DNA of 64,000 nucleotides, taken from positions 32,468 to 96,467 of the forward strand of contig CALGMT010000026.1 of assembly GCA_937958885.1 (NCBI GenBank), written 5' to 3'. The position numbers were made by a program, and so were the translations under genes. The notes under the pieces were generated by a model, which did no database searches, was not told the DNA's origin, and saw nothing but the letters and a program-made list of their open reading frames with translations. Below are positions 1 through 41,721 of the stretch, piece after piece; the stretch's first letter is position 1; each line of letters begins with the position of its first letter. Source of the DNA: an uncultured bacterium. Its GTDB lineage: Bacteria; Verrucomicrobiota; Kiritimatiellia; CAIVKH01.

Positions 1-98
1 GGTCTGTTGATGTGCCTGTTCATTCGGTTCGTTCCGATGATTGCCGGCTTCGAGCTTCGCGAATTGTTGCACAAGAAGAAATCGCATCACCACTAACC

Positions 99-692: not shown

Positions 693-694
693 CC

Positions 695-1282
695 ATGCGA
701 AACCTGTTCACCATAGCCTTGATCGGCGCGGCGTTTGCCGGAACCGGATGCGAGCTCCGGCAGGCGATGTACGACCAGCCGAAGTACCGCCCGCTCCAAC
801 GCAGCGAGTTCTTTAGCGACCAGCGCGCCTCGCGTCCGTTGCCGGAGGGCACGGTTGCCCGCGGGTTGCTCAAGGACGACGAGCACCTCTACGACGGAAT
901 GGAAAACGGCGCGATGGCTCAAACATTTCCGTTTCCCGTGACGTCCGAGGTCCTCGCGCGCGGCCAGGAGCGCTTCAACATTTTCTGCGCTCCGTGCCAC
1001 GACATGGCCGGGTCCGGCAACGGGATGGTGGTTCAGCGGGGCTACAAGAAACCGGCATCATTCCATGAGCAGCGGCTTCGCGATTCCGCTCCGGGATATT
1101 TCTACGGCGCGATCAAAAATGGATTCGGCCAGATGCCGAACTATGCGGATCAGATTCCCGTGCGCGACCGGTGGGCGATCGTCGCGTACATCCGCGCACT
1201 TCAGTTGAGCCGAAACGCCACGATTGACGATGTGCCGCCCGAGGAGCGCGCTGCGCTGGAGACGGCAAAGGCAGGGCATTGA
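695..1282 (+). CDS. Mono-heme cytochrome c lipoprotein (ActE-like)
   Basis: CAPCH heme-binding motif; N-terminal lipoprotein-type signal (LIGAAFAGTGC); M-P-N-Y motif typical of class I cytochrome c; position in act-like operon. Confidence 0.6.
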   Translation: MRNLFTIALIGAAFAGTGCELRQAMYDQPKYRPLQRSEFFSDQRASRPLPEGTVARGLLKDDEHLYDGMENGAMAQTFPFPVTSEVLARGQERFNIFCAPCHDMAGSGNGMVVQRGYKKPASFHEQRLRDSAPGYFYGAIKNGFGQMPNYADQIPVRDRWAIVAYIRALQLSRNATIDDVPPEERAALETAKAGH

Positions 1283-1286
1283 TTTC

Positions 1287-2501: not shown

Positions 2502-2904
2502 TCCATCCACAGATCCTGTCAAGAATCCGAGCGGCGCGGATTTCGCTGATCGCGATATTCCGGTCTCAAAGATTCTGGTCTTTGGGTTTTACATCGCGCT
2601 GTTCACCGCCGTCTCGTTTGTCGGGCTGCGCTTCCTTTACCTGGCGTTGGATCGCAAGGCGGAGCGCGCAGACGAGGCTGTTGCCGCGTTTGCGCGAGAG
2701 ACGCGCGTGCTGCCGCCGGAACCCCGCCTTCAAGTGGATGAACCCGCCACATGGGCGCGGGAAAAAGCGCGCCAGCAGGCGATGATCTCCGGCTACGAGT
2801 GGGTGGATGCCAATGCCGGCGTGGTGCGCATTCCGGTCGAGCGGGCGATGGAAATTCTCGCCGAGCGCGGTCTGCCCGCGCGCGCGGAAGGAGTGAGCCC
2901 GTGA
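2494..2904 (+). CDS. Hypothetical single-pass membrane protein (possible ACIII accessory subunit)
   Basis: 136-aa ORF with one hydrophobic helix. Overlaps neighbouring genes by 8 and 4 bp (operon-like). Confidence 0.35.
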   Translation: MHSPSTDPVKNPSGADFADRDIPVSKILVFGFYIALFTAVSFVGLRFLYLALDRKAERADEAVAAFARETRVLPPEPRLQVDEPATWAREKARQQAMISGYEWVDANAGVVRIPVERAMEILAERGLPARAEGVSP

Positions 2905-3749
2905 ACGCGCGGATCTTCATCGGCGCGATTTGCGCGTGGGCCGCAACGTCCGGCGTATATGCAGCCACTCGTTCGACTCCGATCGAGCAAAAAAACGAAC
3001 CGCCGCCGCCCGCTGTGTTGAAGCGAACCGGTTTCGATCAAAACCTCGGCGCGCAGTTGCCGTTGGATGTCAACGTGCGCGATGAAGAAGGCCGCGTGGT
3101 GCCGCTCGGGACGTTCTTCAAGGATCGCCCGGTCGTCTTCTCGCTCGTTTACTACAACTGCCCGATGCTGTGCACGTTGGTGCTCAATGGCATTGTGGAT
3201 GTGTTGAAGCAAATCGCGTTCGAGCCCGGACGCGATTACGACATCGTCACCTTGAGCTTCAATCACGAAGAAACGCACCTGCTCGCAGCGCAGAAAAAAG
3301 CCAACTACCTCGAAATGTTCAGCAAACCGGGCGCCGCGGCCGGATGGCACTTCCTTACAGCCGACGAGCCGGCCATCGCCGCGATTGCGGACACGGCCGG
3401 ATTCAAATTCGCGTGGGATGAAAAAGCGCAGGAATTCGCGCACGGCAGCGGCATCATGATTGCCACGCCGGATGGAAAGCTCTCTCATTATTTTTACGGC
3501 GTCATGTACAGCCCGCGCGATGTCCGTCTCGCGCTGGTCGAGGCCTCGTCCGGAAAGATCGGCAACCCAGTCGATCAACTCATGCTGCTCTGCTATCACT
3601 ACAATCCCACGATGGGCGGATACAGCGCGGCGGTGATGAACGTGGTCCGGCTAGGATGCTTTGCGACGATAATTGCGGTGGGCGGTTTTATCGCACTGTC
3701 GTGGAATCGCGAACGTAAAGCCATCGCACCCCAATCAATTCCCGCATAG
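2901..3749 (+). CDS. SCO1/SenC family copper chaperone
   Basis: GTG start at 2901 overlapping the previous stop (GTGA). Thioredoxin-like CPMLC (CxxxC) motif, N-terminal membrane anchor, sits between the ACIII and oxidase genes. Confidence 0.7.
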   Translation: MNARIFIGAICAWAATSGVYAATRSTPIEQKNEPPPPAVLKRTGFDQNLGAQLPLDVNVRDEEGRVVPLGTFFKDRPVVFSLVYYNCPMLCTLVLNGIVDVLKQIAFEPGRDYDIVTLSFNHEETHLLAAQKKANYLEMFSKPGAAAGWHFLTADEPAIAAIADTAGFKFAWDEKAQEFAHGSGIMIATPDGKLSHYFYGVMYSPRDVRLALVEASSGKIGNPVDQLMLLCYHYNPTMGGYSAAVMNVVRLGCFATIIAVGGFIALSWNRERKAIAPQSIPA

Positions 3750-3772
3750 GCGGATCGGGTGCGACACCAACT

Positions 3773-4720
3773 ATGAAAAGTGTTTTTAATATATTGCCCG
3801 AGCAGGCCTCGACGGTCGCGTCCCACGTAGACGCGATATACTTATTTCTGATTGCCATCAGCGTCGTTTTCACGCTGTTGGCCGCGGGTCTCGTCATCGT
3901 ATTCGGAGTGAAATTCCGCAGACGGCCGGACGGACCCGCGCCCGAAAAACCGCATGAGGATAGCCGCCTTGAAATGGCCGCCGGCGCTTTTCTTCTCGTG
4001 TTGCTCCTCGTGCTTTTTGGATGGGGCGCAAAGGTCTATTTCCAAAACACGCGCCCGCCCGCTGACGCGATGGAGATTCTGGTTACCGGCAAACAGTGGA
4101 TGTGGAAACTTCAGCACCCGAATGGCCGGCGCGAAATCAACACGCTCCACATCCCGGTGGGCAAGCCGGTTCAGCTCACCATGACCTCGGAAGACGTGAT
4201 TCACAGCTTCTTCATTCCGGCCTTTCGCGTGAAGCAGGATGTGCTTCCAGGGCGCTATACGCGCCTCTGGTTCCAGGCAACCAAGACCGGCCGTTACCGC
4301 CTCTTCTGCACGGAATACTGCGGGACCGAGCATTCCATGATGGGCGGATGGGTCAATGTCATGACCGCGGCCGATTATGAACGATGGCTCTCGGGCGAAG
4401 TCGCGGGCGCGGCTCAAGAGACGCCCGTGCAGGCCGGCGAGCGGCTCTTCACCCAACTCGGCTGTCAAACATGCCACAATGCAGGCTCCGGCGCGCTCGG
4501 TCCGAACCTGGCCGGCGTGTTCGGACACACCGTCAAACTCGCCGACGGCAGCGAGGTGATCGCCGACGAGGAATACTTGCGCGAATCGATCCTTAACCCG
4601 CATGCGAAACTCGTGGCGGGTTTTGCCCCCGTCATGCCGGTGTTCAAAGGCATTATCAACGAAGATCAACTCCTCCAGTTGATCGCCTACATCAAGAGCC
4701 TCAGCGGAGCGTCCAACTGA
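3773..4720 (+). CDS. ctaC: Cytochrome c oxidase subunit II with fused C-terminal cytochrome c domain (caa3-type)
   Basis: Two N-terminal TM helices; CuA motif H..CTEYCG.EHSMM; C-terminal CQTCH heme c site. Confidence 0.85.
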
Positions 4721-4721
4721 T

Positions 4722-6371
4722 ATGAGCGAAACGGCGACCATCGCGGCGACTGCCGAGCCGAAAAATTATCTAACGAACCGCCACACGATCCAGTCGTGGC
4801 TCTTCACGGTCGACCACAAACGGATCGCGATCCTCTATCTGATCAGCCTGACCGTGTTCTTCCTCCTCGGCGGCGCGGCGGCGGCCCTGTTCCGCCTCGA
4901 CCTGATGACGCCTCAGGCCGACCTGCTCCAGTCCGAGACCTACAATAAATTGTTCACGATGCACGGCATCGTGATGATCTTCTTCTTCCTTGTCCCGTCA
5001 ATCCCCGCCGTGATGGGCAACTTCCTCGTTCCCGTGATGATCGGCGCGAAAGACGTCGCCTTCCCCCGGCTGAACCTCTTGAGCTGGTACGTCTTCATGG
5101 CCGGCGGCCTTATCGCACTCGGCGCCATCATCAGCGGCGGGGTGGACACCGGCTGGACGTTCTACACGCCGTACAGCAGCATGTACGCAAATTCCCACGT
5201 GATCCTCGCCGTGGCGGGTGCGTTCATTGCCGGTTTCTCATCGATCATGACGGCTCTGAATTTCATCGTCACCATCCAGAAAATGCGCGCGCCCGGCCTC
5301 ACCTGGTTCCGCCTGCCGCTCTTTATCTGGGCGATGTACGCCACAAGCCTCGTCGTGATCCTCGGCACGCCGGTGGTCGCGATCACGCTGGTCATGATTT
5401 TCATCGAGCGCTTCTTCCAATTCGGCCTGTTCGATCCCGCGCTCGGCGGCGATCCGGTCCTCTTCCAACACCTCTTCTGGTTCTATTCGCACCCCGCGGT
5501 TTACATCATGATCCTGCCCAGCATGGGCGTGATCAGCGAGATTGTGTCCTGCTTCTCCCGCCGCCGGTTGTACGGCTACACCTTCGTTGCGTTCTCCTCG
5601 CTCGCGATCGCGGTGATCGGATTCTTCGTGTGGGGCCACCACATGTTTGTCAGCTCCCAATCGGCCTATGCGGGGCTCATCTTCTCGTTTCTGACCTTCT
5701 TCGTCGCGATTCCGACCGCCATCAAGATCCTCAACTGGATCATGACGATGTACAAGGGATCGATCTCCTTCGACACCCCGATGCTTTACGCATACGGCTT
5801 TCTCGGCCTCTTCACGATCGGCGGTCTGACCGGTCTGTTCTTGAGCACCATGGCGACGGATATCCATCTGCACGACACCTATTTCGTCGTCGCGCATTTC
5901 CACTACGTCATGGTCGGCGGCGGCGTGATGGGGTTCCTCGGCGCCTTGCATTTCTGGTGGCCCAAGATGACCGGTCGCATGTACCCGGAAGGCTGGGCCA
6001 AGTTCGCCGCCATCGTCATTTTTATCGGCTTCAATCTGACCTTTTTCCCACAATTCCAACTCGGCTACCATGGCATGCCGCGCCGCTACCACACCTACGC
6101 GGAGGAATTCCAGATTCTCCACGTCATGTCCACCGCCGGTGCGTCGGTGCTTGGGGCGGGATACCTCATCATGGCCGCCTACCTCGGCTGGTCCCTCTTC
6201 AAGGGCAAGCGCGCCTCCGCCAACCCGTGGGATGCGCGCGGCCTCGAGTGGGAGACCACCTCGCCGCCGCCCACCGAAAACTTCCTGTCCACACCGACCG
6301 TCACACAGGAGGCCTATGCGTATGACAAGCCTTCCGTGACGCATGTCCCTCCGGAGGAGAAACGTGTCTAG
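4722..6371 (+). CDS. ctaD: Cytochrome c oxidase subunit I
   Basis: 549 aa with canonical heme-copper oxidase motifs ([29 protein letters not shown]). Confidence 0.95.
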
Positions 6372-7083
6372 CCACGCCCACGCGCACGTCGCGCATCACT
6401 TCGAGAGCGCCGAGCAGCAGCGCCAATCCGCGCAGCTCGGCATGTGGATATTTCTCGTCACCGAGGTCATGTTTTTCGGCGGCCTCTTTGCCGCCTATGT
6501 CGTCTATCGTTCGCTGTATCCGGAGGCCTGGGTTGTCGGCAGCCACCTGTTGAGTATCGGGCTTGGCGGGTTCAACACCGCGGTGCTGCTCGCCTCGTCG
6601 CTCACAATGGCGCTGGCGGTGCACGCCGCGCAGACCGACAAGCGGAACGCCACCGCGATGTGGATTGTCCTCACGATGGTCCTCGGCTTTGTCTTCCTCG
6701 GCGTCAAAGTTGTCGAATACGCCGGCAAGTTCGAACACCACCTCGTACCCGGCGCGCATTTCCATGTCGATCCGATGGCCGAACTCGCGAAGCTGGAGGC
6801 GGCCGGCGTCCACGTGGGCCAGCACCTGCGCCACGCCTTTGAGACGGCGAACCCGAGCCATGTTCAACTCTTCTATTCACTCTACTTCGCGATGACCGGC
6901 ATGCACGCAGTGCACATGATCATCGGCGCCGGCCTCATGATCTGGCTGCTCGCCAACACGCTGAAGGGCCGCTATTCCTCCGCTTACTACAACCCCGTCG
7001 AAGTCACCGGCCTCTATTGGCACTTCGTGGACATTGTCTGGATTTTCCTGTTCCCCATGCTCTACCTGATCGGGAGACACTGA
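6343..7083 (+). CDS. ctaE: Cytochrome c oxidase subunit III
   Basis: HHFE...multi-TM COX3 pattern; start could alternatively be the GTG near 6364. Confidence 0.85.
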
Positions 7084-7418
7084 TGAGCGAACATCACGTC
7101 ATGCCTATCCGCGTCTACCTGACCATTATCGCTATTTTGATGGCGCTTACGGTCGCCACGGTCTGGGTCGCCTTCCTCGATTTCGGCTATCTCAACACCG
7201 TGATTGCCGTCGGCATCGCTGTCATAAAGGCCCTGCTCGTCGTCATGTATTTCATGCACCTGAAGTACGCGGCGCCGATTACCCGCCTCTTCGCCGGGGC
7301 CGGCGCCGTATTTTTCGTGATCCTCATTGCGATCACCCTGAGCGACTACCGATCCCGCGATTGGTTCCCATTCCCCGAGCCGTGGGAGCAAGCCCATGAA
7401 GCTCCCGCGTCGCACTAA
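7083..7418 (+). CDS. Cytochrome c oxidase subunit IV (prokaryotic caa3 small subunit)
   Basis: ATG at 7083 overlapping the ctaE stop; ~110-aa protein with three TM helices (COX4_pro-like). Confidence 0.6.
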   Translation: MSEHHVMPIRVYLTIIAILMALTVATVWVAFLDFGYLNTVIAVGIAVIKALLVVMYFMHLKYAAPITRLFAGAGAVFFVILIAITLSDYRSRDWFPFPEPWEQAHEAPASH

Positions 7419-8307
7419 ATCCAACTCAGCGGACGCGCCGAGCTGGTCCGACTACTATCAGCTCGCCAAGCCGCGCATCGTCGGCATGGTGCTGGTCACC
7501 ACCGCCACAGGCTTCTTCGTCGGCGGCGCGGGCATCGGATCCTGGGAGCGCACCCTCCTGCTCGTCCTGACCCTCCTCGGCACTGCCCTCGCCGCCGCGG
7601 GCGCAGCGGTTCTAAACAACTACCTCGAGCGCGACACCGACGCGCGCATGGAGCGCACCCGCCTGCGCGCCCTGCCCGCGGGCCGCATCGAGCCCGCCGT
7701 CGCGCTCGCGCTCGGTGTCCTGCTCGTCCTCGGGGGCGTCGCGATACTCGCGGCGCTGGTCAATCTTCTCGCCGCCTTTCTCGTCCTGCTCACGGCGTTT
7801 CTCTACGTGCTTGTGTACACGCCGCTCAAAAAAGTGACCTGGCTCAATACGCCGATCGGCGCGATCCCCGGCGCGTTGCCGCCGATGGTGGGGTGGGCGG
7901 CCGCCGCGAACGAACTGCATGTTGGCGCATGGATTCTGTTTGCCATTCTCTTTCTCTGGCAGCACCCCCACTTCTACGCCATTGCGTGGATGTACCGCAG
8001 CGACTACGCCGCCGCCGGCTACAAGATGCTCTCAACCATCGACCCCACCGGGCGCCGCGTCTTCCGTCAGGCCATCCTCTTCTCCCTCGCGCTGATCCCT
8101 GTATCCATTGCCCTCACCGGCTTCGGCCTCGCGGGCCGGACCTACCTCGTCGGCGCTGTATTCCTCGGATCGGCCTTGCTTGCCGCCAGCTTGCACCTCG
8201 CCCAGCACCAGCGCCTGGCCGACGCGCGCCGCGTTCTGCTCGCCTCCGTCGTCTATTTGCCCCTTCTACTCGCCCTCATCGTGCTCGACGCCGGACTCGC
8301 CCGCTGA
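7396..8307 (+). CDS. ctaB: Protoheme IX farnesyltransferase (heme O synthase)
   Basis: UbiA-family prenyltransferase pattern (YYQLAKPRI..., multiple TM helices); linked to the oxidase operon. Confidence 0.85.
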   Translation: MKLPRRTKSNSADAPSWSDYYQLAKPRIVGMVLVTTATGFFVGGAGIGSWERTLLLVLTLLGTALAAAGAAVLNNYLERDTDARMERTRLRALPAGRIEPAVALALGVLLVLGGVAILAALVNLLAAFLVLLTAFLYVLVYTPLKKVTWLNTPIGAIPGALPPMVGWAAAANELHVGAWILFAILFLWQHPHFYAIAWMYRSDYAAAGYKMLSTIDPTGRRVFRQAILFSLALIPVSIALTGFGLAGRTYLVGAVFLGSALLAASLHLAQHQRLADARRVLLASVVYLPLLLALIVLDAGLAR

Positions 8308-8374: not shown

Positions 8375-10150
8375 ATGGAAATAATAAGGAGACGCGCGCG
8401 CGGGCTGCTGGTCTTCGCGCTTCTCGCCGCGGGCTGTGCGGAAGCGCCGCGCGACGGCGATATCCTCCGCGCAAACACCCTCTATCTCGCATCGGCGCGT
8501 GTGCGGGGATTCGATCCCGCTAAAGTGTCGGATGTCGCGTCTGCCAAAGCCATCCAGCTCGTGTATGAACCGCTGCTGCAGATCGCGTATCTCGACCGCC
8601 CGTACCGCCTCCAACCGCTGCTTGTGGAATCAATGCCGGAGCGCTCAGGAGACGGCCTGCGCTACCTCTTTCGACTTCGACGCGGCATTTATTTCGCCGA
8701 CGCCCCCTGCTTCCCCGGCGGGCGGGGTCGCGAAATGACCGCGGACGATGTTGTCTATTCGATCAAGCGCATCGCCGATCGCAAGGTCGCTTCCAGCGGA
8801 TGGTGGGCGTTCGAAAACCGTATCGTCGGACTCGATGAATTCCGAGAGGCATCGGCGGGCGAGCAGCCGACGGACTATTCGATGCCCGTCGCGGGACTTG
8901 TCGCACGCGATCGATACACCGTGGAAATCGAGCTGGCCCGACCGTTCCCGCAATTTCTTTGGATTCTTGCGCTGCATTACGCCGCCGTCGTCCCGCGCGA
9001 AGCGGTGGAGCATTATGGCGAACGATTCGCAAGCCATCCGGTCGGCACCGGACCTTATCGCCTCGTGGAGTGGCGTCGCAATTACCGGATGATGTTCGAG
9101 CGCAATCCGAAGTGGAGCGAAACCGGACGGATTGATCGTTATCCTTCGTCAGGCGAGCCGGAAGATGAAGCCGCCGGCTTGCTTGCCGATGCCGACCGCC
9201 CGCTGCCGCTGATCGATCGCATCGTCATGTCCGTGATTGCGGATGGCGCAACGCAGTGGATGATGTTTCTCCGCGGGGAATTGGACGAGTCGGAGATTTC
9301 GCGCGACAACTGGGGCGCGGTTATGGATGAGAATGGCGCATTGCGCGCCGATCTCGCCGCGCGCGGCATCCGGCTTTCCGTCGCGCCGCAATTGCGCGTG
9401 AACTACATCGGGTTCAACATGGACGATCCGGTCGTCGGTCCGAATCGCGCGCTCCGGCAGGCGCTCACGTCGGCCTTCAACTCGGAGGAGTGGATTCGCC
9501 TCAACAACGGGCGCGTGAAGCGCGCGCTTGGACCCATTCCAAGTTCGTTGACGGGCTTCGAGCCGAATTATCAGCCATTCCCATTTGATTTGGATCGCGC
9601 GCGGGCGCTGCTCGCAGAGGCCGGCTATCCGGACGGCCGCGATCCGCGCACCGGACGCCGGCTCGAACTGACACTAGAGCTCGGGCGGGCCGACGATCTG
9701 GAGCTGCGCCAATCCGCGGAGCTCATCGCCGCCTTTTTCGAGCGCATCGGCGTGGTCCTGCGTTTGAGCTTCAACAACGGCCCTGCGTTTTTCGAGAAAC
9801 TCGAGCGCGGCCAAGCGCAATTGTTTTATGTCGGTTGGCTCGGCGATTACCCCGATGCCGAGAATTTTCTCCAATGTCTCTACGGCCCGAATGCCGATGG
9901 TGGCCCTAATCGCGCGAACTATCGAAACCCCGAATTCGATCGCCTCTTCGAGCAAGCCCGTGTGATGGAAGATTCGCCGGAGCGGACGGCCCTCTATTCG
10001 GCCCTCGCGCGAATCGCGATCGAAGACTGCCCATGGATCTTTGTCGCCGAACCGTTGAGCTACACGCTGCACCAGACGCGGCTGCTCAATCGCAAGCCTC
10101 ATCTGTTCCCGTATGGAATGGAGAAATACTATGCCCTCCGGCGCCCCTGA
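8375..10150 (+). CDS. ABC transporter substrate-binding protein, family 5 (oligopeptide/dipeptide/nickel type), lipoprotein
   Basis: ORF 8108..10150 with ATG at 8375 (MEIIRRRARGLLVFALLAAGCA lipobox); SBP_bac_5-like sequence throughout. Confidence 0.8.
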   Translation: MEIIRRRARGLLVFALLAAGCAEAPRDGDILRANTLYLASARVRGFDPAKVSDVASAKAIQLVYEPLLQIAYLDRPYRLQPLLVESMPERSGDGLRYLFRLRRGIYFADAPCFPGGRGREMTADDVVYSIKRIADRKVASSGWWAFENRIVGLDEFREASAGEQPTDYSMPVAGLVARDRYTVEIELARPFPQFLWILALHYAAVVPREAVEHYGERFASHPVGTGPYRLVEWRRNYRMMFERNPKWSETGRIDRYPSSGEPEDEAAGLLADADRPLPLIDRIVMSVIADGATQWMMFLRGELDESEISRDNWGAVMDENGALRADLAARGIRLSVAPQLRVNYIGFNMDDPVVGPNRALRQALTSAFNSEEWIRLNNGRVKRALGPIPSSLTGFEPNYQPFPFDLDRARALLAEAGYPDGRDPRTGRRLELTLELGRADDLELRQSAELIAAFFERIGVVLRLSFNNGPAFFEKLERGQAQLFYVGWLGDYPDAENFLQCLYGPNADGGPNRANYRNPEFDRLFEQARVMEDSPERTALYSALARIAIEDCPWIFVAEPLSYTLHQTRLLNRKPHLFPYGMEKYYALRRP

Positions 10151-31057: not shown

Positions 31058-31170
31058 GCGGGAGGGGGAGGGGGAGGGAGAGGGAGAGGGAGAGGGAGCG
31101 GGAGCGGGAGAGGGAGAGCGAGAGGGAGAGGGAGAGGGAGAGCGAGAGGGAGGAAGAGCGAGGGAGAGGG
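31058..31170. repeat. Homopurine hexanucleotide microsatellite (GGGAGA/GGGAGC/GCGAGA), about 19 units
   Basis: Read directly: ~113 bp of G/A with occasional C, hexamer period. Lies between the convergent zwf and rubredoxin genes. Confidence 0.9.
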
Positions 31171-31173
31171 CAT

Positions 31174-31253
31174 TTCCATGCTCTGTAAAAACTTTTTTAA
31201 GAACTTCCATGCTCTGTAAAAAATTAATTTGCGGCTTCCATGCTCTGTAAAAA
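31174..31253 (+). repeat. Three tandem exact copies (31-bp period) of TTCCATGCTCTGTAAAAA
   Basis: Copies start at 31174, 31205 and 31236; directly follows the hexanucleotide tract. Confidence 0.9.
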
Positions 31254-31274
31254 ATTTGTTTGCCGCGCGCGCCG

Positions 31275-31463
31275 TCAAAACGGCTCGAAGGCTTTCTTGA
31301 GCGCGAGGCAAAGAGGGCAGACCCAGCCGTCGGGCAGCGCCTGGAACGGTGTGCCGGGCGCGATGCCGTGTTCGGGATCGCCCATTTGCGGGTCGTACAC
31401 ATACCCGCAGCAGGTGCAGACCCAACGCTCCGCCGTAACCGGGGTTTCGTCTTTCGTTGTCAT
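31275..31463 (-). CDS. Rubredoxin
   Basis: [12 protein letters not shown] and GWVCPLC motifs; probable start at the internal ATG (MTTKDE...). Confidence 0.85.
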
Positions 31464-31524
31464 GGCTTCGGCACCATAATACAAGACGCGCGCGGGTCAA
31501 GCGATCCCAGGGAGAAAAGGTCCG

Positions 31525-33130: not shown

Positions 33131-33634
33131 GTGAACATTATCGTGGCCGTTTCGGACAACGGCGTGATCGGACGCGGCGGCGGGCTGCCGTGGCGGCTGC
33201 CGGACGATCTGCGCCGGTTCAAAGCATTGACCATCGGGCATCCGGTCATCATGGGCCGGCGGACGTGGGAATCGCTGGGGCGTCCGTTGCCCGGTCGGCG
33301 CAACATCGTGGTCACGCGCAATCGAGCGTATGCCGCGCAGGGGGTTGAAATTGCGGGTTCATTGCAGAAGGCCCTGGCGCAGGTCGCCGACGCCGCGGAG
33401 GTCTTTGTGATCGGCGGCGCATCGCTCTATGCCGACGCGTTGCCGCTTGCCCATCGGCTGTATCTGACGCGCGTTCACGCCGAGGTGGAGGGGGACGTGC
33501 GATTTCCCGCGTGGTCGCCCGACGACTGGCAGGAGGTTGAAGCCGACGCGCATCCGGCGGATGCGCAACATCCTTTCGCGTTCACCGCACTGGTCTTCGA
33601 ATCTCGCCGCAATCGGCTTGATAAGCGCATTTGA
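33131..33634 (+). CDS. folA: Dihydrofolate reductase
   Basis: GTG start; IVAVS.NGVIG..G.LPW and GR.T.ES motifs; classic thyA-folA pair. Confidence 0.85.
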   Translation: MNIIVAVSDNGVIGRGGGLPWRLPDDLRRFKALTIGHPVIMGRRTWESLGRPLPGRRNIVVTRNRAYAAQGVEIAGSLQKALAQVADAAEVFVIGGASLYADALPLAHRLYLTRVHAEVEGDVRFPAWSPDDWQEVEADAHPADAQHPFAFTALVFESRRNRLDKRI

Positions 33635-33652
33635 CGCGCGTATTGTCTCATC

Positions 33653-34039
33653 GTGTCCCGCGCCGTCCATTTCATCGTCGCCGTTGCCCTATTTGCCGCG
33701 TCCAATTTGCATCTGCCCGTGCTGCAGGTGGTGGCGTGGACGGGCATGATTGTCTCCTACAGCCAGGGCCGAACGGTTTCAGAGGCGGTTCGCATGACCT
33801 TCGACGGCGAGCATCCGTGCCCGATGTGCAAAGCCATTAAGAAGCAGCAAACGGAGCAACCGCAGCAACTTCAAGTTGCGTCGCCCACAATGAGATTGAT
33901 GGCCGTTTGGGAACCCCCTGACGGTTACGAGCATATCCGCATTATGGTGGATCGTCTGGGCGATTTTACTAACGCCTGGGCTTCATTTTCATGGCCGCCC
34001 GAGCGGCTTCCTCCGCGCGTACACGCCATCTTCGGCTAG
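33653..34039 (+). CDS. Hypothetical small membrane-anchored protein with an HPCPMC (CxxC) motif
   Basis: N-terminal TM helix; single CPMC motif; no family recognised. Confidence 0.4.
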   Translation: MSRAVHFIVAVALFAASNLHLPVLQVVAWTGMIVSYSQGRTVSEAVRMTFDGEHPCPMCKAIKKQQTEQPQQLQVASPTMRLMAVWEPPDGYEHIRIMVDRLGDFTNAWASFSWPPERLPPRVHAIFG

Positions 34040-34130: not shown

Positions 34131-34928
34131 GTGAAGAAAGTTTTACTGTGTGTCTTAGCTCTGCCGCTTGCTGTTCAAGCGGCCACCATTACCAACGTCC
34201 CGATGCAGGGCGGCATGATCATGCCGATGTTCGAATATCACGACGATCACGGGCATCTTCATGTGATGATGCCGACGAATGTCCCCCAGTTGACCCCCTT
34301 GTTGGTCAGTCATCCGGCGGACAATTTCGATCCGGCCGATCCGTGGTTCAACAACCTGGATCCCAGCGCGCAGGGATATTCATTCAGCCGCCGGTATGGC
34401 TGGGTGATGAGCGGCATGAGCGATCCGCTCCCGCCCAACACAGCAATATGGATTCGAAAACTTTCCGGCTCGCCTGAGCTGGGGTTTTATCGCTACAGCG
34501 GGTCCATGCCCAAAGCGTGGGAGCCGATCTACGGCACTGACGGTTCGCCTATGGCGCGGATGTGGAACGGCATGATGTTCCATCCGGGCGTCTCTGCGCC
34601 GCCCGGAACAAACCCGCTGTCGGCGACGTTCGAGGCCTATCTGGTGGATACCGTCACGTCGAACGAAGTCGCCGGCTCCAGCACAGGGCCGTTCGTCCTC
34701 AACTTCACGAATGTGGGGGATGGGCGTCCGGTGTTGGATGCAGCGATGAAGTTTGCCGTGCAATGGGATCCTGCTGCGACAAACTGGGGCTTGGAGTGGG
34801 CGCATTCGCCTACATCCACCGTGTGGAATGCTGTGACCAATATGCCTGTTGAGATCGACGGTTCCGCTACCGTGATCCAGGACCCGAGCGCAGGCTCGCG
34901 CGTCTATCGGCTGCGCAGATTGCCATAA
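34131..34928 (+). CDS. Secreted hypothetical protein with a Met/His-rich N-terminal region (candidate metal-binding)
   Basis: Signal peptide MKKVLLCVLALPLAVQA; MQGGMIMPMFEYHDDHGHLHVMMP segment; Trp-rich. Confidence 0.45.
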   Translation: MKKVLLCVLALPLAVQAATITNVPMQGGMIMPMFEYHDDHGHLHVMMPTNVPQLTPLLVSHPADNFDPADPWFNNLDPSAQGYSFSRRYGWVMSGMSDPLPPNTAIWIRKLSGSPELGFYRYSGSMPKAWEPIYGTDGSPMARMWNGMMFHPGVSAPPGTNPLSATFEAYLVDTVTSNEVAGSSTGPFVLNFTNVGDGRPVLDAAMKFAVQWDPAATNWGLEWAHSPTSTVWNAVTNMPVEIDGSATVIQDPSAGSRVYRLRRLP

Positions 34929-34992: not shown

Positions 34993-35658
34993 ATGCGAAG
35001 GGGGAATGCGGCCGCTAATGCGTTCACGCTGATCGAGTTGCTGGTCGTGCTGGCGATCATCGCGATTCTGGCCGGCCTGGTCGTGCCGTCCTTGTTGCGC
35101 GCGCGCGAGCAAGCGTTCCGGGCGGCGTGTTCATCCAATATGCGGCAGATCGCCATCGCAACGTTGTCGTTTGCGGATGATCGCGACGGGCGGTTTCCCC
35201 GAAGCCAGCATTCGGCTTTTACCCATGGCGAGCGTCCATGGGCGCGCGCAGTGGCCACGTATCTCGGATCGGATGATCGACGCTGGACGAATCTGCTCAA
35301 GGGCGTGTATCGATGCCCGCGCGACGGCCGCCGGAATATGTTGAGCTACGGCTTGAATGTCTATTTTGAACTGGGGCCTGAAGACGATTATGAAGGGCGG
35401 CCGGCCATGTGGCGTACCCGCGATGCGGTGCCGCGGCCGTGGGCCACGATTTTATTGGGGGAGAATGACAGCGACGCGGACCATATCATGCCCAATTTCT
35501 GGGGTTCCATTTCGGACGTCGCCGATCTTGCCTTCGACCGGCACGGGGAGGGCGCGAATTATGTGTTTGTGGACGGGCACGTCGAATTTCGAGCTTTGAA
35601 TCGGGTGTTTGACCCTCAACGAAATGTCGACGCATGGAACCCCCTTAAAGCAGAATAA
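34993..35658 (+). CDS. Prepilin-type N-terminal cleavage/methylation domain protein with C-terminal H-X9-DG (DUF1559) domain
   Basis: NAFTLIELLVVLAIIAIL class III signal; FVDGHV motif near the C-terminus. Confidence 0.8.
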   Translation: MRRGNAAANAFTLIELLVVLAIIAILAGLVVPSLLRAREQAFRAACSSNMRQIAIATLSFADDRDGRFPRSQHSAFTHGERPWARAVATYLGSDDRRWTNLLKGVYRCPRDGRRNMLSYGLNVYFELGPEDDYEGRPAMWRTRDAVPRPWATILLGENDSDADHIMPNFWGSISDVADLAFDRHGEGANYVFVDGHVEFRALNRVFDPQRNVDAWNPLKAE

Positions 35659-35678
35659 CAAACCAGGAGCGTATCGAT

Positions 35679-37076
35679 ATGCAGACGAGAACCTCTGCGA
35701 TAACGGCATTGGCTGAAGAACAGGCGCGGGCGACGGCGCCGCGGATCGGATGGGTCGGCTTACACGGGTGGCTCATCGCAGCGGCGATGGCGCTTGCGGT
35801 AGCTGCGGGGCTCGCCATGCGCGTGGAATGGCTTACGCCGCAACTGGACGCGATGCAGGCCCGGACCTTTGGCGTAGCGCTTACGGCACACGGCGCGCTT
35901 TCGTTTTACTTTGTGCTGATCCCGTCCGCGTTCATTATCCCCATGCTGATGATCGCGCAACGCGGGCGCGCGGATGGAACTATGCCATTTCCTCGACTGG
36001 TGCGCACAGCCGCGTATTTGCAAGCCGCGGGATTGCTTGCGCTGTTGATGCTCGTCCTGACAGGAGGGAGCGAGGCGGGCTGGAATGGCGCGTCAATTTT
36101 TGGCGGGTCGTTTAATGATGCGTCTCTAATCGGCTTGGCCGGCCTCCTGGCCGCGCTGGCGATGGTGGCGCAGGGTGTGCACGCCGCGATGGTCGGCGCG
36201 ATGGCCAACGGCACGGATCAAGACCGCACGGTTTCGCGCGTGGCGTTATTCACCTCCGGCGTGATGGCCTTGCCGACGGGCGGTGTTCTGGCGCTGTGCA
36301 TGGCGAGTGTGCTGATGGATGGTTTGGGCGTTGCCTCCATGTTCAACGCGGCGTTCGGCGGCAATCCGGCCCTCTATGAGCGCTTATTTCAACTCTTCAA
36401 GGTTTCCGCGCTCGCGCTGTGTTGCGTGACGCCCGCCTTTGCGTTTGCGGCCTTGGCGAGCCGCGACCCGCTTGGCGCTCGCGCGCAGATCGCGCTCAGA
36501 GTGCTCGCGGCCGTTGCACTCGTTGCCGCCGTTCCGATCGGCGGCATTCTGCTGTCTTGGAAATACGCGATGGCTGCGGCGGTCTTTTTCGGGTTGGGCG
36601 TGTTTTCGATGAGGCGCAGTCGAGGCGCTCCCGAACACTGGGCGACATACGGCATTTGGGCAATGTTTTGGATTTCCGGCATTCAGGGCTTGATGGCCGG
36701 ATTCATGACCTCGCTTCCGGGCGCACTGTCCATCTTCAGCCAGACCACCCTGGAGAGCGCGGCGCTGCACATGACCGCGCTCGCGGCGTTCGGGTTCGGC
36801 CTGCCCGCCGTGTGGCTGGCAAGCGATGAAGCGGCAGGGCGCGCGAGCAGAGCGCCGCGGATATTTTTCTGCGCCCTCGTGCTTTTTGCCGGCGTTCAAC
36901 TGACGTTTTTGCCGGATGCCTTGCTCGGATTGCGAGGACTCTCATACCGCGCAAACGCGTATCCAGCCGAGTTTCAGGTGCTCAAGATTTTTGGGACAGC
37001 GGGGTCAACAGTCATGGTGACCGGTCTCGCGCTGGTGTTCGGGTCCCTGCTTTTCAGGAAACCGCGCGCGGAGTAG
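35679..37076 (+). CDS. Heme-copper oxidase subunit I-like polytopic membrane protein lacking the canonical CuB histidines
   Basis: Direct comparison with the ctaD product in this window: LTPQ.D..Q..T......T.HG..(S)F.F.L.PS / FPRL / AGL.AL....GG...GW / GG.P.L...LF / LTF.P blocks are conserved, but WFYSHP reads QLFKVS and GHHMF is absent. 465 aa, about 12 TM helices. Confidence 0.55.
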   Translation: MQTRTSAITALAEEQARATAPRIGWVGLHGWLIAAAMALAVAAGLAMRVEWLTPQLDAMQARTFGVALTAHGALSFYFVLIPSAFIIPMLMIAQRGRADGTMPFPRLVRTAAYLQAAGLLALLMLVLTGGSEAGWNGASIFGGSFNDASLIGLAGLLAALAMVAQGVHAAMVGAMANGTDQDRTVSRVALFTSGVMALPTGGVLALCMASVLMDGLGVASMFNAAFGGNPALYERLFQLFKVSALALCCVTPAFAFAALASRDPLGARAQIALRVLAAVALVAAVPIGGILLSWKYAMAAAVFFGLGVFSMRRSRGAPEHWATYGIWAMFWISGIQGLMAGFMTSLPGALSIFSQTTLESAALHMTALAAFGFGLPAVWLASDEAAGRASRAPRIFFCALVLFAGVQLTFLPDALLGLRGLSYRANAYPAEFQVLKIFGTAGSTVMVTGLALVFGSLLFRKPRAE

Positions 37077-37228: not shown

Positions 37229-37241
37229 TCGTTTTACTTTT

Positions 37242-37278
37242 GCCCTTCAGAAGTCGGGACGCGTTCAAACTGAAGGGC
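37242..37278 (+). promoter_or_regulatory. 5'UTR hairpin (9-bp stem GCCCTTCAG/CTGAAGGGC, 19-nt loop) ending 6 nt before the amylase ATG
   Basis: Inverted repeat read directly from the sequence. Confidence 0.4.
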
Positions 37279-37284
37279 ATAAGC

Positions 37285-40200
37285 ATGAGTACACGGACGT
37301 TGAAATGGATGCTTTTAGGGGGATGGATTGGATTGGCCTTGGGCCTTTCGGCGGTCGCGGGACCGCACGATATCATTTCCCGGTTGGAGGGGAATCCGGG
37401 ATACTCGTTTTTCCCAAGTCCGTCAGACTGGCGCGATGTGAACATGTATCAGTTGTTCACCGACCGTTTTTACGACGGCAATCAGGCCAACAACCTCGCG
37501 CGCCAATCGACCGCCGGCGTGCCGTGGTACAACGTGTCCGGCAGCAACCATGAGACGAACCGACATTTTGCGCAGGGCGGCGACTGGGCGGGGATCAAGC
37601 AGAAGCTGCCCTATCTCAAGGGAATGGGGGTCAATGCGATCTGGATATCCGGCGTTCAGATCAACGAGCAGGGGATCGACAAGCGCTTCACGCCGTATCA
37701 CGCGTATCACCCGTCCGATTTCTACAAAGTCGAGCCGCTCTTCGGCACGTTCGCCGAGCTGAAAGACCTGATCGACACCGCACACAGCAACGGCGTCTAT
37801 GTGATCATCGATGTGGTGGTCAACCACATGGCGGACTTGCTGAAGTACACCGATTGCAACTGCAACTATGCGGGCTATTGCGCCAACAACTGCGGGCAGC
37901 TCGCCTATTGGGACAACAACGTCCGATTCGGCGCGCCGTTCGACAACCCCGCGCTGTTCCACAACAACGGCACGATCGGCGACAGCGACTGGGACACCTA
38001 TCCGCGCTACATCAACGGCGCGTTTCTCGGCACGGAGGATTTGAAGACGGAAGACCCGTTCGTTCAAAGCGAGCTCAAGAAGGCGTTCAAACATCTGATC
38101 GACGCGACGGATTGCGACGGCTTCCGCGTGGATGCGATCAAGCACATGGAATACAATTTCATCAAGGATTGGGCGCACGAGATGCGCGTGCACGCGGCCG
38201 CGCGCGGCAAGACGAATTTCATCCTGTTTGGCGAGTATTTCTCCTACGACGACAACACGCAGGCGTCGTACTGCAAAGACGAGGGCTATTCGTTCAACTC
38301 GACGCTTTGGTTTCCGATGCAGATGACGCTGAAGAATGTCTTCGCGTTCGAGCAGGGGACGGTCCAGCTCGAGCAGCGCATGAACGCGATGAACCTCTAC
38401 GGCGAGGCGAAGGACAAGCTCGTCGCCTTCCTCGACAACCACGACGTGGACCGCATCGCGCTGGAGGCGGGTCCGCAGTGGGAGGCGAAATTGCGCCCCG
38501 GCCTGACGTTCCTCTACACCGCGCTGCCGGTGCCGTGCCTGTTTTATGGCACGGAGCACGGCTTCAATCAGGGCGAGCGCCGGAACGGATCGCCGGTGCT
38601 GGGCCTGGCCGATTTTCAGCGCGAGAACATGATGAACTTCGGCTTTCAATGGGGCAACGCATACGGCGACAAGTTTTTCGCGAGCCCGCTTTACAACCAC
38701 ATCAAGAAGCTCAACGAGCTGCGCGCGCAGTATCCGTCGCTCCGGCGAGGCGCGATAACGCAGCGCTGGTCTGAGGGCGGCAAAGGGTTGTTCGCATTTA
38801 CGCGCACGCTCGGGCAGGAGGAGGCGCTCGTCGCGTTCAATACCGATTGGACCAGCAAGTCGATGAACCCGCAGGTGGCCAAGCCGAACGGCACCGTGTT
38901 CGTGAATGCGCTGAATCCGTCCGAGCAGGTGACGGTGGCGGGCGGACGCCTGTCGTTCTCCGTGGCGGGCAAGGAGTCGAAAATCTTTGTCGCCGGCGCG
39001 GGCTCTTCCTCCGTCAGCACGACGTGCAACGCGACGACCTTGAACATCACCTACACGCCGAACGCGGGCCCCCTGGCCGCGCCGGTGGGGAATGTGCGTT
39101 TGGGGCTCGTCCGCAATTCGGACACGGGGCATATCGATGTGGTGATGACGAAGGTGGCGAACGATTGGATTTACGCGTATCCGCTCACCTCCGGCACGAC
39201 CAGCGTTCGCTTTTGGTTTCGGGATGAGGCCGTCCCTCCGACGTACGACAATCGCGGCGGACAGGATTGGATCGTGGACACCAGCGGCTGCGGGTTGCCG
39301 ACGGTGGATCTCGCGTGGATCGGCAATGAGTATCACTGGCCGCCGAACGGCGATCTCGACGCGGGCGAGACGCTGTGGATCAACGTCGAGTCCTGGCCGC
39401 AGGGCGCGGCGATTGATGGGCAAGTGGTCTATCAAGTCAATGGCGGCGCGTGGAATTCGGTTCCGCTGGTCTGGAATGGCACCGCGGGGAATAACGATGC
39501 CTGGCATCGAAACCTCGGTTCATTCCCCGGCGGCGCGACGATCAAATACGCGATCAGCCTGCGCGGTCGAAACGGCGACCTCTGGCTGAACAACAACAAC
39601 CAGGACTACACGGCGACCGTCAATGCCAGCCCGAACGGCGTGCAGTGGATCGGCAACACGCATCACTGGCCGGAAAACGGCGCGATCGAGCCGGATAGCG
39701 ATCTATGGATCAACATCGAATCCTGGCCGATCGGCGCGGCGGTCACCGGCGAGGTGGTGTATTCCTATGACGGCGGCGCGACCTGGTTCGCGCGGGGCTT
39801 GAGGAAGAACGGGACTATCGCGAACAACGATTGGCTAAACAGCAACCTTGGTCAATTCCCGCCGAGCGCGACCGTGCGCTACGCGGTGAAGGTCACCGAC
39901 GGCGATGGCGTCGATCACTGGGACAACAACAACGGCAGCAACTTCGTCGCGTTGATCAACGCCGCGTCGTCGTCGCTGCGATGGTTCGGCAACACCAAGC
40001 CCGGCGGTGTGAGAAAGCCGGAGGCCGGCATCGGTATGAACCCGGCCACGCGCAAGGTGCAGGTCGAGATGGAAAACCTGACCAGCAACGCGCTTTACAG
40101 CATCCTCGTTTCGCAAAATCTGATGACCTGGTCGAATCTCGCCTCCGTCGCGGCGGATGAACCGGTCGAAATCATGGAATTGCTGAATGATCCCGTGCAG

Positions 40201-41721
40201 GGCCCCTTCGCGGCCTTCGCCATTCGCGTCGATTGGACGCCTGCCGTCGCGGTCTATGACGGCGAAGAAGCGATGGTTAGCGTGGAAACGTGGCCTATCG
40301 GCGGCGCGACAGGCGCGACCATCGTGTTCAGCTCGGATGGCGGGACGAACTGGCACGCGCGTCCGATGCGCAAGTCCGGCACGCGCGGCAACAACGACGT
40401 CTGGACCGTCTCGCTCGGCAACTTTCCGATCGGAACGACCGTTCGCTATGCCATTGAAATCATGGACGACCAGGCGCAGGCCCAGTGGGACAACAATAAC
40501 GGACAGGACCACCGCTTTACGGTGCTCGACCCGAACCAGACGGACTTCAATCCGCCGACGACGGGCTACAGTCCGTCCAATCTGACGACGTCGGCGTCGA
40601 CGTTGGGCGTGACCTTGACCGCGTCGGACGACATCGATCCTAACCCGACGATCTACTACACGACGAACGGTTCCACGCCGACGACCGGCAGCGCGGTCTA
40701 TTCGGGGCCGATTCTGGTGACCGACCAAGGTTCGGGCATCGACATGACCATCAAGTTTTTCGCGCGCGACGCGTCGGGCAACAACTCGGCCGTCGTCACG
40801 CTGGACGTGCGCGTCAACCATACGACCGCATTCGGCGCCGACAAACCGTATTCGACCAACCCGACGCTCGGCCGCCGGGTGCCCAACGGGTCGATCACCA
40901 TCGATGGCGCGAACAGCGGCGAGTGGACCACGAATAATCTGATCGCGCTCGACATGGCAAACGACGACCCTCGTTCGCTCGGGTCGAACTGGACGATGCA
41001 CGAAGCGCCGATCGACCTCACGCATATGTGGGCGGCGTGGGACGACAACTATCTCTATCTCGCCTGGCAGTACGTCGATGTGACGGACATCATCGATCCG
41101 GCAAATGCCGGCAGCGCCGGCGGCGGGAAAATCTCCAATAACGACGGCATCTTGCAGTGGATCGTCCTCGACACGATTCCCGGCGCGGGCTCGACGAACG
41201 ACATGTGGAACAAGAAGAACCACTGGGCCGGGTCGCATCGGCCGGACTATCAAATCTATCTCGCGGGCAGTCTGTGGCAGGGCTACATCTCGCGCGCGGT
41301 GGGCGGCGTGTTTCCGGTCGATGACGGCGGCGTGAACTACCGCACCATTGCGGGCGCGGGGATCACGGTGGCGAAGGGCAACCTTTTCGCGGCAAACGCG
41401 CTTTGGGGGGTGGGTGACGCGGATGACCGTTTCAATCCGGGCGCGCCGAACCGCAATTTCCTCGCGGAGGGCCACAACACCGCGCGCGACAGTTTCTATG
41501 AGATGCGCATACCGCTGTCCTACCTGAACGTGACCGCCGCGCAGTTGGAGGCCGGCGGAATCGGTGTGATGATTGGCGGCGGATCCTTGTCGACGATGGA
41601 TTCGATTCCAAACGATCCGGCCACGTCCGACACGCCCGGCGTCGAGTCCTACAACTCGTCCTTTGAGTGGGCTGATCGGGACGTCTTCACCGTTCCGTTC
41701 GCGCGCATAGGCGCGGACTGA
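37285..41721 (+). CDS. Secreted multidomain GH13 alpha-amylase with four tandem CBM25-like starch-binding repeats and a C-terminal chitobiase/Fn3-like region
   Basis: Signal peptide after ATG 37285. GH13 regions DVVVNH, GFRVDAIKH, GEYF, FLDNHD. Four ~100-aa repeats each ending in ...WDNNNG. TIYYTTNGSTPT CHB_HEX_C-like segment. Confidence 0.85.
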   Translation: MSTRTLKWMLLGGWIGLALGLSAVAGPHDIISRLEGNPGYSFFPSPSDWRDVNMYQLFTDRFYDGNQANNLARQSTAGVPWYNVSGSNHETNRHFAQGGDWAGIKQKLPYLKGMGVNAIWISGVQINEQGIDKRFTPYHAYHPSDFYKVEPLFGTFAELKDLIDTAHSNGVYVIIDVVVNHMADLLKYTDCNCNYAGYCANNCGQLAYWDNNVRFGAPFDNPALFHNNGTIGDSDWDTYPRYINGAFLGTEDLKTEDPFVQSELKKAFKHLIDATDCDGFRVDAIKHMEYNFIKDWAHEMRVHAAARGKTNFILFGEYFSYDDNTQASYCKDEGYSFNSTLWFPMQMTLKNVFAFEQGTVQLEQRMNAMNLYGEAKDKLVAFLDNHDVDRIALEAGPQWEAKLRPGLTFLYTALPVPCLFYGTEHGFNQGERRNGSPVLGLADFQRENMMNFGFQWGNAYGDKFFASPLYNHIKKLNELRAQYPSLRRGAITQRWSEGGKGLFAFTRTLGQEEALVAFNTDWTSKSMNPQVAKPNGTVFVNALNPSEQVTVAGGRLSFSVAGKESKIFVAGAGSSSVSTTCNATTLNITYTPNAGPLAAPVGNVRLGLVRNSDTGHIDVVMTKVANDWIYAYPLTSGTTSVRFWFRDEAVPPTYDNRGGQDWIVDTSGCGLPTVDLAWIGNEYHWPPNGDLDAGETLWINVESWPQGAAIDGQVVYQVNGGAWNSVPLVWNGTAGNNDAWHRNLGSFPGGATIKYAISLRGRNGDLWLNNNNQDYTATVNASPNGVQWIGNTHHWPENGAIEPDSDLWINIESWPIGAAVTGEVVYSYDGGATWFARGLRKNGTIANNDWLNSNLGQFPPSATVRYAVKVTDGDGVDHWDNNNGSNFVALINAASSSLRWFGNTKPGGVRKPEAGIGMNPATRKVQVEMENLTSNALYSILVSQNLMTWSNLASVAADEPVEIMELLNDPVQGPFAAFAIRVDWTPAVAVYDGEEAMVSVETWPIGGATGATIVFSSDGGTNWHARPMRKSGTRGNNDVWTVSLGNFPIGTTVRYAIEIMDDQAQAQWDNNNGQDHRFTVLDPNQTDFNPPTTGYSPSNLTTSASTLGVTLTASDDIDPNPTIYYTTNGSTPTTGSAVYSGPILVTDQGSGIDMTIKFFARDASGNNSAVVTLDVRVNHTTAFGADKPYSTNPTLGRRVPNGSITIDGANSGEWTTNNLIALDMANDDPRSLGSNWTMHEAPIDLTHMWAAWDDNYLYLAWQYVDVTDIIDPANAGSAGGGKISNNDGILQWIVLDTIPGAGSTNDMWNKKNHWAGSHRPDYQIYLAGSLWQGYISRAVGGVFPVDDGGVNYRTIAGAGITVAKGNLFAANALWGVGDADDRFNPGAPNRNFLAEGHNTARDSFYEMRIPLSYLNVTAAQLEAGGIGVMIGGGSLSTMDSIPNDPATSDTPGVESYNSSFEWADRDVFTVPFARIGAD

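Follow-up and report, generated by a model that had tools for sequence, protein, structure and literature searches.

What does a subunit I of a heme-copper oxidase (HCO) do once its heme-copper centre is gone? This question is raised by an open reading frame (ORF) at positions 35679..37076 on the + strand of a 64,000-nucleotide stretch of contig CALGMT010000026.1 from an uncultured bacterium of the Kiritimatiellia, a stretch which is referred to as the window in the following. The initial annotation, made from the sequence letters, had described the 465-amino-acid product as a degenerate paralog of cytochrome oxidase subunit I, and position, strand and length of the ORF were found as described. 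The ORF is a real full-length homologue of HCO subunit I, and its product, here termed COX1-like protein, is very probably a CuB-less HCO derivative that has retained the low-spin heme site. The best explanation as a whole, an A-family-derived, heme-only membrane redox module in periplasmic copper handling, is put forward with roughly even confidence.

The gene is preceded by the Shine-Dalgarno sequence AGGAG (35665-35669, + strand, read from the sequence), 9 nt 5′ of its ATG, and the stop of the preceding gene lies at 35658. As the homologues share the N-terminus M-Q-[TA], the start codon appears sound. The protein, which has 12 predicted transmembrane (TM) helices, matches the Pfam family COX1 (PF00115) with E=7.2e-15 and 55 bits (gathering cut-off 34.8) over profile positions 7-435 of 436. 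No match to NnrS (PF05940) was obtained, COX1 being the sole Pfam match at E values up to 1. The window also carries a ctaD gene (4722..6371), whose product scores 494 bits on PF00115. A BLASTP comparison of the two proteins (25% identity, 465 columns, E=2e-26) reproduces the shared sequence blocks on which the initial annotation had based the relationship. In agreement with this, a profile search of the PDB gave T. thermophilus caa3 as best match (2YEV, 2.6e-55), and only A-family chains (caa3, aa3, aa3-600, bo3) were found; no B-family, C-family or nitric oxide reductase (NOR) chain was among the matches. The AlphaFold2 model, with a predicted local distance difference test score (pLDDT) of 82 and a predicted TM-score (pTM) of 0.85, contains 12 long TM helices. 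The top matches of this model in a Foldseek search against the PDB were all A-type subunit I chains (TM-score ~0.77), so that the expected 12-helix HCO fold is borne out.

Which of the metal ligands are left was determined from three alignments, with the CtaD protein of the window, with E. coli CyoB (numbering verified residue by residue) and with the T. thermophilus caa3 profile, and all three agree on the same pattern. Kept are the His of helix II (H71, corresponding to CyoB H106; codon 35889-35891) and the second His of the helix X H-x-H motif (H364, corresponding to CyoB H421; codon 36768-36770). In HCOs these two residues ligate the low-spin heme axially; this heme sits near the periplasmic face. 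The stretch HPAVY of helix VI reads KVSAL in the COX1-like protein, with Val in place of the CuB His and Ala in place of the cross-link Tyr. The His pair of helix VII (GHHMF stretch) falls within a deletion of ~18 residues, which is found across the core clade, and the first His of helix X, the ligand of the high-spin heme, is Ala. The loss of the helix VI His and of the GHHMF pair had already been noticed in the initial annotation, and it is seen in all three alignments. Altogether, the COX1-like protein contains five His.

The same pattern was counted over 22 full-length aligned members of the clade that is described below. All 22 sequences have H71, H364, the GGxxxGW Trp and, of the RR pair that binds the propionate, the second Arg (R424 in the COX1-like protein, codon 36948-36950); the Arg of TM1 is present in 19/22. 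No other His is invariant, H29 being found in 17/22 sequences. The three CuB His (helix VI H, helix VII HH) occur in 0/22 sequences, the cross-link Tyr in 1/22, the D-channel Asp in 2/22 and the high-spin-heme His in 7/22, with Gln at this position in 6/22. The D-channel Asn, the K-channel Lys and the His/Asp of the Mg site do not occur at all (0/22 each), and the same applies to the first Arg in the RR pair; the K-channel Lys position is hydrophobic, and S[FY]RAN stands in place of PRRYH. The suggestion that only the helix II His and one helix X His survive of the six canonical His thus holds for the entire clade, and with all three CuB His gone a binuclear heme-copper centre is not possible. 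The low-spin-heme pocket and its bis-His pair are strictly retained, and from this conservation it appears likely that a heme is actually bound. The residues forming the quinol site of bo3 and aa3-600 oxidases (CyoB R71, D75, H98 and Q101) are replaced mainly by L, A, T/S and A/V, respectively, replacements that resemble cytochrome c oxidases. As all four are replaced, a bo3-like quinol site was rejected as point of electron entry.

Could the protein nevertheless be a working oxidase or NO reductase whose ligands are unconventional and have been misaligned? Family membership alone speaks for this, together with the label "cytochrome c oxidase subunit 1" that relatives carry. However, the protein has only five His, of which two are invariant, and no His/Asp/Glu cluster is conserved in helices VI-VIII. 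The His pair of helix VII is deleted, Tyr and proton channels are missing, and no subunit II gene lies nearby. No conserved His, Glu or Asp was found at the binuclear sites of NORs, which places the protein outside of these families. It is also no member of the CtaD/CoxA equivalog of NCBIfam (TIGR02891), on which it scores 71 bits against a cut-off of 670.75. Sequence and fold thus make it an HCO superfamily member, yet one that lacks four of the defining cofactor features (CuB His, high-spin-heme His, Tyr and proton channels), and it ought to be classed neither as an oxidase or quinol oxidase nor as a NOR. After these losses the protein can act neither as terminal oxidase nor as NO reductase; judged by sequence, this reading is effectively refuted, and we regard it as extremely unlikely.

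Is this a single odd gene? A word-indexed search retrieved only four close relatives (43-51% identity), one of them from a Kiritimatiellae metagenome-assembled genome (MAG). An exhaustive profile search of 1.84 billion representatives yielded a graded set of homologues, with a core clade (P0003-5, P0009-11), a wider clade (P0012-P0027, E 1e-62 to 1e-36) and, beyond these, forms with partial ligand sets and canonical oxidases. Profile scans of genome contigs gave no matches with the narrow core alignment (A2); with the wider alignment (A3), members were found in MAGs of Verrucomicrobiota or with the label Deltaproteobacteria as well as in unclassified ones, and a Kiritimatiellia source is represented as well. 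In their source annotations the members are called "cytochrome c oxidase subunit 1" or are unnamed. In a neighbour-joining tree the 22 members are monophyletic with modest support (bootstrap 61) and enclose a Kiritimatiellia core (bootstrap 80). The 22-member clade is rare, A-family-derived and apparently undescribed.

Loss of ligands appears to be graded over several HCO lineages. Other degenerate subunit I homologues (P0038, P0045, P0049 and P0065, and P0022, P0027, P0029, P0031 and P0036) were encountered, some of which also lack one or both heme His, and others of which keep the Tyr, one CuB His and both His of helix X. P0022, a sister with a partial ligand set, is encoded by an orphan gene between those for glutamate synthase and carbonic anhydrase, with no subunit II.

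Within the literature and databases consulted, no characterized family with this pattern was found, as had been suspected initially. In particular, searches of the open-access literature gave no description of a CuB-less HCO family, with a mention in subscription journals being possible. The standard HCO database dropped sequences lacking the six His (PMC3084760), which is probably the reason why the clade has stayed undescribed. A survey from 2024 reports one His to Asp exchange in gNOR as the first replacement of an active-site His and describes the active-site His as otherwise completely conserved (Murali et al. 2024, PMC11214002). The families eNOR, sNOR, gNOR, nNOR and NOD are likewise HCO members without cross-link Tyr and with a changed active site that were mined from environmental sequences. 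They differ from the clade in keeping a binuclear metal site, whereas here the three CuB His and the heme b3/a3 ligand are lost, and in deriving from the B or C families and having a subunit II, whereas the clade is derived from the A family and has none.

With A2-type caa3/aa3 subunit I (2YEV and the CtaD protein of the window) the COX1-like protein shares the 12-TM fold, the bis-His ligands, the propionate Arg, the GGxxxGW Trp, the TM1 Arg and several periplasmic loop motifs. Compared with A-family subunit I it is devoid of CuB His, His-Tyr cross-link, high-spin-heme His, D and K channels and Mg site, it has lost ~18 residues at helix VII, and its gene is not adjacent to genes for subunits II, III or IV and lies instead in a copper-protein operon.

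Where selection acts on the protein was read from the 22-sequence alignment, which was mapped onto the helices of the model using the standard HCO topology; positions with at least 90% conservation were counted as conserved. Such positions make up 28% of the periplasmic loops and only 2% of the cytoplasmic loops, 10% of the periplasmic thirds of the helices and 4-6% of the deeper membrane. TM7 and TM8, the old CuB/K-channel helices, are least conserved, TM2 and TM12 are most conserved, and TM3 and TM10 lie above average. This pattern points to purifying selection on the low-spin heme pocket and on the periplasmic surface above it, and to an absence of selection on the old active site and on the cytoplasmic side. 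It argues against a decaying pseudogene and also against a transmembrane transporter. A pseudogene was rejected for further reasons as well, namely an intact ORF with a ribosome binding site and homologues that are full length with invariant ligands.

A copper connection is indicated by the genes and domains with which members of the clade are associated. In P0012, P0016, L008 and L024 the protein extends past TM12 into a stretch of basic residues, a 13th hydrophobic helix and a heavy-metal-associated (HMA) domain with the sequence GMHCE[GS]C, which is the Cu(I) motif of HMA domains. As the chain then has 13 helices, the HMA domain is predicted from the positive-inside pattern to face the periplasm. 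Two loci that contain the three-gene module described below and no COX1-like gene have copper proteins in the same operon slot: a lipoprotein with a CopZ-like HMA domain, followed by Sco/SenC and then CusF (L022), or Sco-CusF (L021). A CusA/CzcA pump of the resistance-nodulation-division type is encoded directly upstream in L008 (1294 bits), MacB and CzcB-type genes lie upstream in L023, a CutC gene lies upstream in L028, and L009 has a ZIP transporter gene.

A second lineage (L006, L011/L027, L014 and L015) has no such module and has copper-related flanks of its own. Beside its COX1-like gene, also in L006, lies a divergently transcribed gene for a 426-amino-acid lipoprotein with a YtkA-like domain containing MPSMPGMP. 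A Csp1 copper storage protein with a twin-arginine translocation (Tat) signal (TIGR04401, 103.6 bits, cut-off 100) is encoded in L011/L027, L014 and L015; none was found on the short contig of L006. Upstream, a CxxCH protein is encoded in L011, L014 and L015. L011 and L015 also have a gene for a diheme CCP_MauG peroxidase close by, of which L027 contains a fragment. Neither Pfam nor NCBIfam gave a significant match for the CxxCH protein of L015, whose assignment as a class II cytochrome c is no more than conjecture. These genes form a conserved cluster (6015-11965 in L011; also in L014, L015 and L027), in which the YtkA-like lipoprotein has several domains and His-rich motifs, and which is followed by the CCP_MauG gene; the MAGs in question lie outside of the Planctomycetes-Verrucomicrobia-Chlamydiae (PVC) group. 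Altogether, a copper-protein neighbour or fusion is present in 13/21 distinct loci, to which L001 adds a decayed remnant of the module. In evolutionary terms these cases reduce to about three or four arrangements of independent origin, so that the loci cannot be counted as separate samples. COX2 or COX3 was not recognized in any of the loci L001-L015, L019-L020 and L024-L028, with a subset of the neighbours being compared with Pfam. The proteins that recur as neighbours or fusion partners of the family, namely CopZ-like HMA proteins, Sco/SenC, CusF, YtkA/CtaK and Csp1, belong to known copper-chaperone clusters. Unlike these, the COX1-like protein has no recognizable copper-binding motif, and it is a polytopic heme-type membrane protein and not a soluble one. 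A functional link of the COX1-like protein to copper handling is nonetheless the reading that we moderately favour.

Might the protein transport copper or another metal, with the pore left behind by the binuclear centre and the K channel conducting Cu(I) across the inner membrane, and with the ion being passed on by HMA, Met-rich and HPCxxC proteins? Metal transporters typically carry HMA fusions, genes for CusA, ZIP and MacB/CzcB occur among the neighbours, and in TM5 the residues C207 and M208 are fairly conserved (16/22 and 14/22). Yet there is no invariant ladder of Met, Cys, His or Asp in the membrane, the helices that line the vacated pore, TM7 and TM8, are precisely the least conserved ones, and the cytoplasmic loops are nearly unconserved (2%). 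As the HMA domain is predicted to lie in the periplasm behind the 13th helix, nothing marks a cytoplasmic entry or exit. A transporter is therefore regarded as quite improbable.

In the window itself, the copper context consists of three genes directly upstream, all on the + strand. The first (33653..34039) encodes a CxxC membrane protein of 128 amino acids with one hydrophobic helix at the N-terminus (LQVVAWTGM), behind which the invariant motif TFDGxHPCxxC is found. The second (34131..34928) encodes a secreted protein of 265 amino acids with a signal peptide and the invariant motifs PMQGxMxMP and GMMFHP. The third (34993..35658) encodes a His/Met-rich prepilin-type protein of 221 amino acids with an N-methylation motif, which belongs to the H-X9-DG/DUF1559 proteins and in whose subfamily C46, H73, H78, C108, DHIMP (163-167), H184 and H196 are invariant. 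The second protein had been called Met/His-rich. Its Met-rich motifs are indeed conserved; its His-rich part, the stretch HDDHGHLH, is not. Its model is a two-domain beta-sandwich with generic structural neighbours only. Neither the CxxC protein nor the Met-rich protein matches any Pfam or NCBIfam family, and for none of the three genes is a function given by these databases. Together with the COX1-like gene they form a run of four genes in one direction, separated by 91, 64 and 20 bp. A sigma-70-like promoter match (33618..33646, + strand), weak in consensus, lies just 5′ of the first gene. A terminator scan found no site in the intergenic gaps of the module and two + strand matches inside genes 2 and 4.

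This tight arrangement, which was part of the initial annotation, is no coincidence of the window. In 8 distinct loci (the window, L003, L004, L005, L008, L009, L019/L020 and L024), tblastn searches placed the prepilin-like gene directly 5′ of the COX1-like gene, and wherever the flank is long enough the order of all four genes is present. Downstream of the COX1-like gene the window contains a gene for a secreted alpha-amylase-family protein of 1493 amino acids (37240-41721). Its synteny extends to L002, L003 and L019/L020, and in L009 it is encoded on the opposite strand; the adjacency probably reflects synteny within the lineage and not a shared function. With the CxxC, Met-rich and prepilin-like genes on one side and the alpha-amylase gene on the other, no subunit II or III gene adjoins the COX1-like gene. 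The three-gene module is widespread in PVC bacteria and looks like an undescribed copper module; searches of the open-access literature gave no link between DUF1559 and copper.

Two further observations concern the region 5′ of the COX1-like gene. In L001, a Kiritimatiellae MAG, an interrupted remnant of the C-terminus of the prepilin-like protein is located at 9795-9953, and the locus is syntenic with the window for G6PD, rubredoxin, PNP, ThyA, DHFR and the COX1-like gene. In L002 the expected position of the module, directly 5′ of the COX1-like gene, is occupied by an 88-bp tandem repeat (73-301; 2.6 copies, 96% matches) with internal palindromes.

Several observations weigh against a role of the COX1-like protein in copper handling or in the module. 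The bo3-type quinol-site residues are absent, and beyond the two heme ligands the protein bears no invariant cluster of Met, Cys or His, C207 being present in 16/22 members. In 7/21 loci (L002, L007, L010, L012, L013, L025 and L026) no copper gene lies nearby; the neighbours found in these loci are nitroreductase and universal stress protein (Usp) genes (L007, L012), a histidine kinase, radical SAM and MsrAB genes (MsrAB in L013) and a cytochrome c (L025), the flank of L002 being uninformative on copper neighbours. The Met-rich protein of the module forms at least 749 clusters at 90% identity, compared with about 5 for the COX1-like core family. The module often occurs without a COX1-like gene, as in L016-18 and L021-23, in L016-18 and L023 all on its own. 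Conversely, L001 has an intact COX1-like gene with only the stop-ridden remnant 5′ of it. Between the window and L008/L009, finally, the COX1-like proteins are 32% identical, whereas the partner proteins are 42-60% identical.

Part of this would be expected if the protein were a scaffold or pseudo-enzyme without redox function, in which heme is kept for the stability of the fold and which serves periplasmic copper chaperones as a large membrane anchor or docking platform (for instance as a decoy subunit I), or which is simply a slowly decaying paralog. Its faster evolution and the fact that the module commonly works without it fit this idea, as does the poor conservation of the old active-site helices. 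Furthermore, in L008, L024 and P0012/16 the COX1-like protein takes the place of the simple HMA lipoprotein anchor seen in L022. Against this stands that intact full-length ORFs persist in at least two phyla, that heme ligands, propionate Arg and Trp are invariant, and that the family has periplasmic motifs specific to it (ELLTPxLD, GG[ST]E[AV]GW and S[FY]RANAYP). In L001 the COX1-like gene has even persisted alone after decay of the module, and in other lineages cytochrome c genes adjoin it. A mere scaffold is thus considered unlikely, if not negligibly so.

The loci with cytochrome genes lead to another reading, in which the protein transfers electrons on the periplasmic side and is not specific for copper. 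It could relay electrons between c-type cytochromes and periplasmic stress enzymes or could be an alternative partner of a canonical subunit II, with the copper genes being adjacent for regulatory or assembly reasons. A diheme cytochrome c gene immediately downstream in L025, the CxxCH protein of L011, L014 and L015 and the CCP peroxidase of L011 and L015 fit in here, as do nitroreductase and Usp in L007 and L012 and MsrAB in L013, and the family derives from cytochrome c oxidases and not from quinol oxidases. The HMA fusions and the three kinds of copper-protein neighbourhood are, however, hard to explain without copper. A copper-independent electron-transfer role therefore seems rather unlikely to us.

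How could a heme-only subunit I serve copper handling in the periplasm? According to the explanation that we prefer, an A-family subunit I that has lost the O2- or NO-reducing binuclear centre, the D and K channels and the Mg site would have kept one bis-His heme near the periplasmic surface. Supplied by a presumed donor, this heme would exchange electrons with periplasmic copper or with copper-chaperone proteins. On the conserved periplasmic surface that overlies the heme, Cu(II) could be reduced to Cu(I), with electrons flowing from heme to copper; alternatively, the protein may maintain the redox state of CxxC, HMA or Sco sites. The Cu(I) might then be fed to Cu(I)-specific sites of the partners, be it to the Met-rich, HPCxxC and prepilin-like proteins, to the fused HMA domain or, elsewhere, to Sco, CusF or Csp1. 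The prepilin-like protein, anchored by a single helix, or the tethered HMA domain may take the position that subunit II has in real oxidases. The fusions and the recurrent coupling to periplasmic Cu(I)-binding proteins are compatible with this sketch, and c-type cytochromes are present in some lineages. That the COX1-like protein is specifically a cupric reductase is a doubtful proposal, for which the HMA fusion and the Sco, CusF, Csp1 and YtkA neighbours speak. Equally tentative is the full scenario, in which an oxidase subunit without copper and O2 chemistry would have become a heme-driven metalloreductase, with a pseudopilin-like protein in place of subunit II, and in which Cu(I) would be made or relayed for an undescribed PVC module.

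To our knowledge, CcoG is the only cupric reductase known in periplasmic copper handling. CcoG, which uses Fe-S clusters, and the bis-His-heme membrane reductases MsrQ/YedZ and cytochrome b561/Dcytb are redox proteins of the membrane whose electrons go to a metal or partner in the periplasm or outside of the cell. With these the COX1-like protein shares no sequence or fold relationship, and only a functional analogy is proposed, in which it would provide chaperones with Cu(I). The hemes of Dcytb and MsrQ span the membrane or have a defined quinol or cytoplasmic donor, whereas the COX1-like protein has one predicted heme near the periplasmic face.

The window also contains a complete respiratory cluster (12-8307), at a distance of ~30 kb from the COX1-like paralog. 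It comprises genes resembling alternative complex III, including a CxxCH subunit, a gene for a Sco-like CxxxC protein (2751-3749), coxB with a C-terminal cytochrome c domain (3773-4720), the A2-type ctaD with the motif YSHPAVY (4722-6371), ctaE, ctaF and a gene resembling heme O synthase (7396-8307). Such a complete cluster marks the organism as a genuine aerobe or microaerobe. Between the G6PD gene and the rubredoxin gene (31275-31484, - strand), two tandem repeats were noted at 31062-31263, one with 17.8 copies of GAGGGA (31062-31170) and one with 2.9 copies of a 31-bp unit (31174-31263).

For the biology of these bacteria, the first consequence is one of annotation, as the label "cytochrome c oxidase subunit 1" would wrongly credit Kiritimatiellia and Verrucomicrobiota genomes with an extra terminal oxidase. 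A clade in which only the low-spin heme site is left shows the minimal stable core of the HCO fold and provides, in the form of a natural "heme a/b only" subunit I, a means to study how electrons enter when the catalytic site is missing. That HMA, Sco, CusF, YtkA and Csp1 proteins recur in association with the clade points to a periplasmic copper-handling step that has so far gone unrecognized. The association is, moreover, an initial lead to the function of one subfamily among the large group of uncharacterized DUF1559/H-X9-DG prepilin-like proteins of PVC bacteria, and the three-gene module may even be a bigger story than the COX1-like gene itself. The latter is probably a copper-less, heme-only offshoot of subunit I which was recruited to periplasmic copper or redox handling.

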